DNA from: a virus
Lineage: Duplodnaviria; Heunggongvirae; Uroviricota; Caudoviricetes
Virus record (IMG/VR): IMGVR_UViG_2703718781_000003
Direction: 5' to 3' (one strand)
DNA length: 4,479 nt
In this document: positions 422 through 4,479 of the stretch, piece after piece
Layout: every line of letters starts with the position of its first letter
Numbering within the stretch: position 1 is the first letter of the stretch
Translations under genes and position numbers: made by a program
The notes under the pieces: model-generated
What the model was told of the DNA's origin: nothing
What the model saw: only the letters and a program-made list of their open reading frames with translations
Database searches by the model: none

Positions 422-577
422 GAAGAATATTTTGCTGAAAAATGAGGTTTGCTCACACGGACGGATAACACGAAATCCTGCGAACTGACAAAACCTAAGT
501 GAATAAAAGTAAAAACCACGTTTGTTGGCAGCAAGCGGGGTTTTGTGTTTCTGACCTTGGATAAGGCAAGGGAGAAC

Positions 578-760
578 ATGGAAAAGTATAAACGAATTCT
601 GTTGAGGTTGACTATGAAAAACGGCCTTGAACTGAAAGCGCCAGTAACTGATGACATCAGCAGAGCACAGGCTTTTGCTATTAAGTGGGTGGCGGTCGGT
701 ATTGCTGTGTCTCCGATGCTGTATGGGCTGGCAAAACTGGTCATTGCGTTGAAATCGTGA
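578..760 (+). CDS. Hypothetical small protein (60 aa) with a C-terminal hydrophobic, probably transmembrane, segment; inserted between endolysin and Rz
   Basis: ATG at 578 is preceded by a Shine-Dalgarno-like AAGGGAGAA 5 nt upstream; TGA stop at 758-760. The C-terminal stretch [22 protein letters not shown] is hydrophobic. It is co-oriented with the late operon. No homolog recognised by eye. Confidence 0.45.
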
Positions 761-772
761 AGAGGATTAAAC

Positions 773-904
773 ATGTCAGACAAACTCATAATGCTGGCGA
801 AGATCCTCTGTGTAATCGTCGGCATTTCATTTTCACTAATGCTGGTTGCTCTTTTTCTTTCCATGGGCTGGATGATGTTATCTTCGTCGGGGCTGCTGGG
901 GTGA
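773..904 (+). CDS. Hypothetical small single-pass membrane peptide (43 aa)
   Basis: ATG at 773 is preceded by AAGAGGA 6-7 nt upstream; translation is [43 protein letters not shown], mostly hydrophobic. Its TGA stop (902-904) overlaps the GTG (901-903) that aligns with the lambda Rz start, a GTGA coupling arrangement. It is absent from the supplied ORF track, presumably because it is short. It is in the same frame as the 578-760 ORF, separated by one TGA. Confidence 0.4.
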
Positions 905-1374
905 GCATAAACCGAATGCTTTCCGCGTTTACCGTTATTCTGCTGGTGGTCTGTGGTGCGCTTAGTCTGGGGCTGAATCATTACCGCGATAACGCCATCA
1001 CCTACAAAGCGCAGCGCGATAAAAAAGCCAGAGAGCTGGAGCTGGCAAACGCAACCATTACTGATATGCAGGTGCGCCAGCGCGATGTTGCTGCGCTCGA
1101 TGCAAAATACTCGAGGGAATTAGCCGATGCGAGAGCTGAAAATGAAACTCTGCGTGCTGATGTTGCCGCTGGTCGTAAGCGCCTGCGGATCAACGCCACC
1201 TGCTCCGGTACCGTGCGTGAAGCCACCGGCACCTCCGGCGTGGGCAATGATGCCGCCGTCGAACTCTCTCCGGTTGCTGGACGAAACGTTCTCGGTATCA
1301 GAGACGGAATCATCAGCGACCAGGCTGCATTGAGAATGCTTCAGGAATATATCCGTACTCAGTGTATTAACTAG
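901..1374 (+). CDS. Rz: Rz i-spanin (inner-membrane spanin subunit)
   Basis: Translation ...[52 protein letters not shown]... is near-identical to lambda Rz as remembered, with an N-terminal TM segment followed by a coiled-coil region. The start is assigned to GTG 901 because GTG-AGC aligns with the lambda Rz start ATG-AGC (MS...); the alternative start is ATG 916. Stop is TAG at 1372-1374. Confidence 0.88.
1127..1333 (+). CDS. Rz1: Rz1 o-spanin (outer-membrane lipoprotein spanin subunit), embedded in the +1 frame of Rz
   Basis: Translation [44 protein letters not shown]... matches lambda Rz1 (MLKLKMMLCVMMLPLVVVGC...CVKPPPPPAW...). It has a lipobox-like VSAC and a proline-rich mature region, and lies wholly inside Rz in a different frame. 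Confidence 0.82.
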
Positions 1375-1844: not shown

Positions 1845-1851
1845 TTTTCAC

Positions 1852-1858
1852 GGGTCCT
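1852..1858 (+). other. cosQ-like element (GGGTCCT) about 24-30 bp upstream of the cosN nick region
   Basis: ACGGGTCCTTTCCGG matches the lambda right-end sequence preceding cosN. Placement of cosQ within this stretch is from memory of lambda and is approximate. Confidence 0.55.
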
Positions 1859-1881
1859 TTCCGGCGATCCGGGCCGTTACG

Positions 1882-1893
1882 GGGCGGCGACCT
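1882..1893 (+). other. cosN: 12-nt cohesive-end sequence GGGCGGCGACCT, identical to the lambda cohesive end
   Basis: The exact 12-mer GGGCGGCGACCT is present, preceded by GTTACG and followed by CGCGGGTTTTCGCTATTTATGAAAATTTTCCGG, which matches the lambda left end for about 33 nt. Confidence 0.9.
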
Positions 1894-1928
1894 CGCGGGT
1901 TTTCGCTATTTATGAAAATTTTCCGGGG

Positions 1929-2046
1929 AAAATCATGTCGGTACTTCTCGAACATAACTATTTGTTTTTTCTAATATCGAATCCGTAAAGGTCCGACATG
2001 AAAACGCCTGAAAAAGTCATTTTCGGGCACTTTCATGTCGGACCCT
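1929..2046 (+). other. cosB-like terminase small-subunit binding region with three R-like elements (core TCATGTCGG), distinct from lambda R sites
   Basis: Three copies of the core: AATCATGTCGGTAC at 1931-1944 (direct), GGTCCGACATGAAA at 1990-2003 (inverted) and TTTCATGTCGGACC at 2031-2044 (direct). The last two are perfect reverse complements. An AT-rich spacer (1945-1989) lies where lambda has the IHF site I1. The region is directly upstream of Nu1. Confidence 0.7.
1990..2044. repeat. Perfect 14-bp inverted repeat GGTCCGACATGAAA / TTTCATGTCGGACC with a 27-bp spacer (R2-like/R1-like pair)
   Basis: Read directly from the sequence; the two arms at 1990-2003 and 2031-2044 are exact reverse complements. 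Confidence 0.9.
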
Positions 2047-2068
2047 GTATTTGTTGTGAGACTGTTTC

Positions 2069-2588
2069 ATGAAGGTTAATAAAAAGAAACTTGCCGAAAT
2101 TTTCAAAGTGGATCCGCGAACGATTGAACGCTGGCAGTCTCAGGGGCTCCCTTGCGTCTCCGGAGGTGGTAAGGGCGTTGAATCTGTATTTGATACCGCC
2201 ACGGCAATTCAGTGGTATGCGCAGAGGGAAGCTGATATCGAAAATGAAAAACTCCGTAAAGAGGTTGAGGATTACAGGGCTGCCAGCGAGGCAGATCTCC
2301 AGCCTGGGACTATTGAGTACGAACGCCATCGACTTACGCGTGCGCAGGCTGACGCCCAGGAGCTGAAGAATGCCAGAGACTCCGCAGAAGTGGTGGAAAC
2401 CGCATTCTGTACTTTCGTGCTGTCACGGATCGCAGGTGAAATTGCCAGTATTCTTGACGGGATCCCTCTCTCAGTACAGCGGCGTTTTCCGGAACTGGAA
2501 AACCGACATGTTGATTTCCTGAAACGGGATATTATCAAAGCCATGAACAAAGCAGCCGCGCTGGATGAACTGATACCGGGGTTGCTGA

Positions 2589-2614
<26 letters not shown>
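2069..2614 (+). CDS. Nu1: Terminase small subunit (gpNu1 family); N-terminal DNA-binding domain diverged from lambda, C-terminal two thirds near-identical to lambda Nu1
   Basis: Translation [36 protein letters not shown]... then ...[60 protein letters not shown]...LSEYIEQSD. From ASEADLQPG onward it matches lambda Nu1 as remembered. TGA stop at 2612-2614. Confidence 0.95.

Positions 2615-4479
<1,865 letters not shown>

Follow-up and report, generated by a model that had tools for sequence, protein, structure and literature searches.

The DNA analysed here raises the question of whether cosB and the DNA-binding domain of the small terminase subunit were swapped as a unit within otherwise lambda-like packaging DNA and, if so, which packaging specificity the swapped unit would carry. 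It is a textbook example of how a DNA site and the domain that reads it co-evolve as a module, and lambda and phage 21 are the pair with which terminase domain structure and packaging specificity were worked out. A reading made from the sequence alone had proposed the swap and had suggested an alignment against lambda and phage 21 as a check.

The window, by which we mean the whole stretch of 4,479 bp, comes from a lambdoid prophage and covers the junction between the late region and the left end. It opens in the C-terminal part of a phage lysozyme gene, which ends at nt 421, and continues with Rz (916-1374) and its embedded Rz1 (1127-1333), cos, a small terminase gene of the Nu1 family (2069-2614, plus strand), the lambda-type large terminase gene A (2589-4295, plus strand, from the list of open reading frames and the lambda alignment) and, at the downstream end, the start only of a W-like gene. 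The Nu1 assignment comes from a match to the Pfam profile Phage_Nu1 (PF07471, E = 5.9e-91) that spans positions 1-164 of 164. The cos site of a PICI was considered and ruled out, as lysis genes and a full terminase are present in the window.

Some features of the surroundings are worth recording. Endolysin and Rz, which are adjacent genes in lambda, are spaced by about 500 bp in the window (422-915). Two small open reading frames are found there, 578-760 (60 aa) and 773-904 (43 aa), which matched phrog_1115 and phrog_4906, two PHROG families of unknown function; both contain hydrophobic segments, and the Pfam search gave no match for either. Between Rz and cos lies a 74-codon open reading frame (1398-1622), also with no match in the Pfam search. 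Its match covered only positions 100-172 of the 291 positions of phrog_2571, another family of unknown function, so the encoded protein may be a piece of a longer one. From Rz to cosQ (1600-1831), the sequence resembles neither lambda nor phage 21. Last, gene A is broken by a run of 83 N (3210-3292), and its 568-codon open reading frame seen here is the counterpart of the 641-aa gpA. In four relatives, namely lambda, IdasGreatGrand and two E. coli chromosomes, the sequences that flank the run are 302 bp apart, which indicates that the run is a mask or a gap of altered length, with no real deletion.

Mosaic breakpoints in the packaging region

A three-way MAFFT alignment was made of positions 1600-2700 of the window, lambda in circularised form (J02459) and the head operon of phage 21 (M81255), and the coordinates of R4, R3, I1, R2 and R1 were transferred through it from the M81255 annotation. 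On the cosQ side, the R4 box (CGGGTCCTTTCC, 1851-1862, plus strand; R4 of M81255, 136-147) is the same in the window, lambda and phage 21 and stands outside the swapped unit. The 12-nt cohesive-end sequence of cosN, GGGCGGCGACCT (1882-1893, plus strand), exactly matches the first 12 bases of J02459, and the mature chromosome is numbered from nt 1882. Then comes a lambda-type stretch (1894-1926, plus strand) made up of the right flank of cosN and the I2 IHF site (1911-1925). In the alignment, nt 1867-1926 matched lambda at 93% identity and phage 21 at 85%. Right of the cohesive end there are four informative sites (1899, 1905, 1923 and 1925), and the lambda state was found at each of them, in the window as well as in each of the 24 mosaic loci described below. 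The window tracks lambda to nt 1926, and the proposed lambda match through cosN and about 33 bp beyond it was thus confirmed.

At the left of cosN, GTTACG is preceded by GGGCC in the window (1871-1875) and by ACAGG in lambda. This is a minority variant, with four of the sequences compared carrying it, window included, versus 49 with GCGATCCGACAG. The cosN core is 16 bp long, and the variant lies outside it (PMC9026076).

The first 21-only sites are 1927-1929, which places the left junction between 1925 and 1927. The sequence-only reading had set the divergence exactly at the start of lambda R3. The break is real, but it starts 4 bp earlier, at nt 1927 (chromosome bp 46), lambda R3 being bp 50-65 (nt 1931-1946). 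From left to right, the counts of lambda-only and 21-only informative sites were 10 and 2 in 1832-1926, 13 and 112 in 1927-2262, 4 and 4 in 2263-2283, and 126 and 5 in 2284-2608. Fisher tests supported both switches, the left one with p = 1.4e-7 and the right one with p = 2e-50. Overall identities followed the same lines, 1927-2275 being 86% identical to phage 21 and 58% to lambda, and 2276-2608 being 94.6% identical to lambda and 58.6% to phage 21. The right junction falls within 2263-2283, with the best breakpoint between 2280 and 2284. The region is therefore not uniformly lambda-like, and the junctions expected near 1927 and 2280 are where the informative sites switch.

The 21-type DNA amounts to about 355 bp, from chromosome bp 46 to about bp 402, with junctions at bp 45/46 and in codons 65-72. 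The left junction lies between I2 and R3 and the right one at the end of the DNA-binding domain, for which the 1J9I construct has 68 residues. The flanks of the cassette, that is, the right flank of cosN with I2 on one side and the C-terminal two thirds of Nu1 followed by gpA on the other, are lambda-type.

Since cosB and the N-terminal domain are the most variable part of this region among lambdoid phages, one might suppose that no exchange took place and that we are looking at a fast-evolving stretch of the lambda lineage, resembling phage 21 by convergence or by chance. The alignment already refutes this and leaves it practically no probability. Informative sites were in the 21 state at 112 of 125 positions in 1927-2262 against 5 of 131 in 2284-2608, and the switches were abrupt, the left one taking no more than 2 bp and the right one about 20 bp. 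Moreover, the non-coding spacers between the R boxes are also 21-like, for which selection on binding offers no explanation. We thus retain an exchange as the origin of the mosaic. Judging from the aligned sequences, it may have brought a 21 cassette into a lambda backbone or gone the opposite way. A donor closer than phage 21 (86%) was searched for in E. coli and none was found.

Swapped cosB and chimeric small terminase subunit

Three exact copies of TCATGTCGG are present in the swapped cosB, at 1933-1941 (plus strand), 1993-2001 (minus strand) and 2033-2041 (plus strand). The number of exact matches expected in the window was 0.04, and three copies were reached in none of 200 shuffles. The three R-like elements had been described as direct, inverted and direct, and this is the arrangement that we found, with starts at 1933, 1993 and 2033. 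All three belong to sites of the phage 21 type. R3 (AATCATGTCGGTACTT, 1931-1946, plus strand, bp 50-65) was identical to the annotated 21 R3 at 15 of 16 positions. R2, which is inverted (1988-2003, minus strand) and contains the inverted copy, was identical to the annotated 21 R2 at 16 of 16, and R1 (TTTCATGTCGGACCCT, 2031-2046, plus strand) to the annotated 21 R1 at 14 of 16. The core common to the three boxes is CATGTCGG. No match to the lambda-type CGTTTCC box was found anywhere in the window.

Site geometry is kept as well. The position of R3 at bp 50-65 is common to the window, lambda and phage 21, and the distance from cosN to R3 is therefore conserved. The offset from R2 to R1 is 43 bp, as in phage 21, and the spacing and orientation of the R sites are the same as in that phage. 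At R3, the window has the 21 state, G, at bp 56 (nt 1937) as well as at bp 59 (nt 1940), where lambda has T and C, respectively. Between R3 and R2 lies a homologue of the I1 IHF site (1953-1967, minus strand), identical to the annotated 21 I1 at 13 of 15 positions. Its minus-strand sequence, AAACAAATAGTTA, is one mismatch away from the IHF consensus WATCARNNNNTTR, and it is the sole predicted site of this kind in 1880-2070.

The small subunit is a chimeric protein. Codons 1-71 (2069-2283, plus strand) encode a phage-21-type winged helix-turn-helix DNA-binding domain, and codons 72-181 (2284-2614, plus strand) encode the lambda-type part for self-assembly and TerL (gpA) binding. Residues 1-70 shared 84% identity with gp1 of phage 21 and 60% with lambda Nu1; for residues 71-181, the values were 50.5% with phage 21 and 97.3% with lambda. 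Within this second part, residues 141-181 were identical to lambda at 40 of 41 positions, with 29% identity to phage 21. About 75 N-terminal residues had been said to diverge from lambda; the divergence was borne out, over a length closer to 70 residues. The return to near-identity around nt 2280 was also found, A72-S73-E74 beginning at nt 2282. Alignment, repeat and protein figures agree, which indicates that the coordinates and description given by the sequence-only reading were right within a few bases.

The region of the recognition helix (residues 15-26) was identical to gp1 at 12 of 12 positions and to lambda at 7 of 12. Residue 24 is Ser in the window, as in gp1, and Glu in lambda; the three residues E20/R21/S24 of the window stand against Q20/N21/E24 in lambda. 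The top PDB match of the N-terminal domain was 7LWR (E = 3.7e-28), above the lambda structures 6HN7 and 1J9I. The 54-residue sequence of 7LWR is that of residues 1-54 of phage 21 gp1, to which residues 1-54 of the window protein are 87% identical. At codon 13 (2105-2107), two residues ahead of the 15-26 segment, the window protein has Lys13 where the widespread RefSeq protein WP_000867498.1 has Asn13, which is the sole difference between the two; lambda has Gly there.

Residues 1-70 hold 11 substitutions with respect to gp1, of which four are in or beside the wing (V30A, G32K, G34S and V37I relative to gp1). The wing reads SGGGKGV in the window versus SKGSKGI in phage 21, with K35 conserved. 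A lambda-like micro-patch in the wing (sites 2157, 2162, 2163 and 2168) was considered as a second recombination event and dropped, because GGGKG is present in lambda and in the 7LXS sequence also. For the same reason, the GGGKG wing looks like the common state, with no novelty, and the KGSKG wing of phage 21 looks like a derived one.

Distribution of the allele and its co-residence with lambda-type cos

Co-variation was scored in 100 scorable natural Nu1-family loci, drawn from IMG/VR and from one genome per species, using the 190 bp upstream. All 24 loci with a 21-type helix had three CRTGTCGG boxes upstream and none had CGTTTCC, and all 76 loci with a lambda-type helix were without the 21-type box. 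Binding sites and binding domain therefore co-vary as a unit, as had been claimed, with no exception among these loci. Both junctions showed the same pattern of informative sites in 24 of the 24 mosaic loci, which makes them one allele lineage with fixed junctions. The DNA to the left of cosN was variable among these 24.

Two side observations were made on this set of loci. First, codons 8-21 of gpA (2609-2650) read IDILRRD...A in the window versus VNRLRHF...S in lambda, with 71% nucleotide identity to lambda in surroundings of about 95%. This patch belongs to a part of gpA for which an interaction with Nu1 has been reported, and it reassorts without regard to the cosB/helix type: 16 loci with a 21-type helix had IDILRRD and 8 had VNRLRHF, and IDILRRD was also found in two loci with a lambda-type helix. 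Second, some near-lambda Nu1 loci (L089-L097, L109-L111, L113-L116 and L118-L119) were often on contigs that start at or near cos or are about 48.4 kb, in assemblies labelled Pseudomonas, Shewanella, Paenibacillus, Kitasatospora, Bradyrhizobium, Oceanobacillus and others. Such loci almost certainly reflect contamination with lambda DNA or spike-in, not prophages.

Of 5,426 complete E. coli genomes, 541 (about 10%) carried the full mosaic, for which a match to 80% or more of a 761-bp probe across both junctions was required. Carriers among the matches listed were mostly of the STEC serotypes O157:H7, O121, O103 and O178. The allele was also present in one deposited phage genome, that of the isolated Escherichia phage IdasGreatGrand, from an environmental sample and with E. 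coli as host, which was 98.4% identical over 801 bp. The cassette alone was found in 1,377 genomes, with 562 records at 95% identity or above, corresponding to the hybrid lineage, and 808 records at 80-90%. In O104:H4 2009EL-2050, the only example of the 80-90% group examined, gp1 was 100%/99% identical to that of phage 21, and hence this group is probably ordinary 21-type. An allele group at about 87%, with matches ending at nt 2262, had been considered as a further hybrid type and was dropped, as the O104:H4 example turned out to be 21-proper.

STEC chromosomes, which make up most of the carriers, contain many lambdoid prophages, and many of the prophages with the allele may be defective. 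The hybrid cos and small subunit could then be a non-functional relic, sitting in decaying prophages and packaging nothing. The best-matching genome, NZ_CP027338.1, has the adjacent lysis gene (Rz) annotated as frameshifted, and the window has its masked gap in gene A, two features that would fit such decay. Yet hundreds of genomes have the small-subunit open reading frame intact and 98-100% conserved, relatives encode a full-length large subunit (641 aa), and the same allele is found in IdasGreatGrand, which was deposited as a complete phage genome. The laboratory analogue discussed below is viable, moreover. Taken together, these points make a relic very unlikely, and we favour a cassette that would function in packaging.

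The lambda-type cos together with the Nu1 N-terminal region was found in 3,954 genomes. Evidence for co-residence comes from individual genomes. In NZ_CP037945.1 and in NZ_CP074963.1, the lambda-type probe matched at seven places each and the hybrid cassette at a single place, elsewhere on the chromosome; in NZ_CP028112.1, the 761-bp probe matched at five places and the cassette at one. Such counts suggest that one hybrid, predicted to be 21-specific, typically resides beside several lambda-type cos in a cell.

The Feiss group has put forward the idea that diverse packaging specificities are advantageous when related prophages are present. The carrier genomes are a natural setting for this idea; they reveal no new mechanism. 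It is possible, if rather doubtful, that the hybrid allele is kept in polylysogenic STEC for a packaging specificity that does not overlap with those of the other resident prophages, with TerL and heads of the lambda type being shared. If so, a lambda-type terminase would start no dead-end packaging at the hybrid cos, in cells where up to seven lambda-type cos are co-resident, and the hybrid terminase would not be wasted on these lambda-type cos. The tight junctions (bp 45/46 and codons 65-72) would then mark out a minimal exchangeable specificity cassette. A related possibility is that a 21-type DNA-binding domain allows TerS to escape hijacking by the Rpp proteins of PICIs.

Packaging specificity and known systems

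Lambda and phage 21 have cosQ and cosN in common, yet each packages its own DNA more than 1000-fold better (PMC4669245). The critical recognition positions, as defined by genetics, are bp 56 and 59 of R3, and Glu24 of lambda TerS contacts the T:A pair at bp 56 and clashes with the G:C pair that phage 21 has at this position (PMC4669245). The recognition helix corresponds to residues 17-24 and the wing to residues 31-39; wing residues are thought to touch the minor groove, and the contact zone is bp 55-63 (PMC9026076). We assigned the cassette to the 21 specificity class because of the bases at bp 56 and 59, Ser24, the 12 of 12 identity in the helix, 7LWR as the best match and the lack of CGTTTCC. 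In all likelihood, nt 1927 to about 2283 constitute a phage-21-type packaging-recognition cassette, made up of cosB (R3/I1/R2/R1) and the first 70 or so TerS codons, within an otherwise lambda-type packaging region, and 21-specific function would be part of it. Binding, discrimination and function in vivo would be expected from identity at the known determinants and from the fact that lambda-21 hybrids made in the laboratory are viable and 21-specific. As to the distinct packaging specificity put forward by the sequence-only reading, it holds in being unlike that of lambda; the specificity is probably not a new one and would be that of phage 21, long known.

In its strongest sense, that earlier wording is the claim of a third packaging specificity, distinct from those of lambda and phage 21. 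The cassette is just 86% identical to phage 21, R1 and R3 are slightly unlike their 21 counterparts, and the wing, SGGGKGV versus SKGSKGI, differs in residues thought to be minor-groove contacts. Also, the gap in E. coli between the allele (at least 95%) and 21-proper (about 87%) is unfilled except for 10 records at 90-95%. We nevertheless consider a third specificity unlikely. The recognition helix is that of gp1 in all 12 residues and R2 is that of phage 21 in all 16 positions; K35 is conserved, all R-box cores share CATGTCGG, and bp 56 and 59 are in the 21 state. The difference at bp 54 of R3, A for G, brings this box nearer to the core of R2 and R1 of phage 21 and lies outside the bp 55-63 contact zone, and the GGGKG wing, being found in lambda and 7LXS as well, looks like the common state. 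What is left is a small chance of a shifted affinity or specificity, given the 14% nucleotide divergence, the 11 substitutions in the domain, and the differences at 2 of 16 positions in R1 and 1 of 16 in R3 (bp 54).

With a cassette of the 21 class, packaging may be pictured as follows. The 21-type domain of the chimeric small subunit would read the 21-type cosB, and its lambda-type C-terminus (residues 141-181) would recruit or hold the lambda-type gpA, its partner. Held in this way, gpA would nick cosN at a fixed distance and dock on lambda-type proheads. With a 21-type N-terminal domain and a lambda-type C-terminus in one protein, 21-type recognition would be joined to enzyme and head components of the lambda type. 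Because the 21-type domain would read the DNA and the lambda-type C-terminus would hold gpA, the phage would be expected to package DNA with a 21-type cosB and to discriminate against lambda-type cos, using lambda-type enzyme and head parts. Current annotation calls all such proteins "terminase small subunit"; a signature combining the helix and the R boxes could give their specificity class.

The cosB/gp1 packaging specificity of phage 21 is reportedly tied to the names of Smith and Feiss (1993) and Sippy et al. (2015). Like phage 21 (M81255), the window has three CRTGTCGG boxes, arranged as R3(+)-I1-R2(-)-R1(+) with unchanged distances from cosN, G at both bp 56 and bp 59, and an identical recognition helix. 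It differs from phage 21 in the 14% nucleotide divergence of the cassette, in its GGGKG wing versus KGSKG, and in having the C-terminal 110 residues of the small subunit, the large subunit and the downstream head genes of the lambda type. With lambda Nu1/cosB, the window shares the Pfam Phage_Nu1 family, the cohesive end, the first 45 bp through I2, the R3-I1-R2-R1 layout and the C-terminal two thirds of the protein (97%). Unlike lambda, it has no CGTTTCC boxes, its helix has E20/R21/S24, and residues 1-70 are 60% identical. N15/Monarch and the Rpp proteins of PICIs are comparable in that the pair formed by the winged helix-turn-helix and cosB is altered, with cosN and TerL kept. However, N15 has a single R3, of another sequence, and PICIs use an extra protein, Rpp, which forms a heterodimer with TerS; of these two other known routes to a changed cosB recognition, neither is the one seen in the window.

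The closest parallel is found in the lambda-21 hybrids hy51 and hy33 (Frackman, Siegele and Feiss 1985), as they are presented in PMC9026076 and PMC4669245. In these accounts, the 5' part of gene 1 is fused to the 3' part of Nu1. As described there, hy51 combines the 21 cosB and the 21 N-terminal part of TerS with the lambda C-terminal part; it is viable and served as a 21-specific helper. By these accounts, TerL binding was placed in the C-terminal half by means of the chimeric TerS. The natural allele is thus like the laboratory hybrids, as these sources describe them, in setting a 21 cosB and the 21 DNA-binding part of TerS on the lambda TerL-binding C-terminal part. By the same accounts, the laboratory exchange is a left-end segment of about 600 bp, whereas the natural cassette is about 355 bp long, internal and widespread. 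It is internal and not a left-end replacement because the first 45 bp (cohesive end, right flank of cosN and I2) are lambda-type.

What is already established comprises the specificity class, the co-variation of site with domain, and the fact that a chimera of this design is viable. No paper on a natural hybrid of this kind or on phage IdasGreatGrand was found in the literature searched, which is no proof of absence, and the natural allele and its tight boundaries may be undescribed. The allele is the natural counterpart of the viable lambda-21 hybrids by which the Feiss laboratory defined the domains of terminase. It is a tighter chimera than these hybrids, bounded by the start of cosB on one side and the end of the DNA-binding domain on the other.
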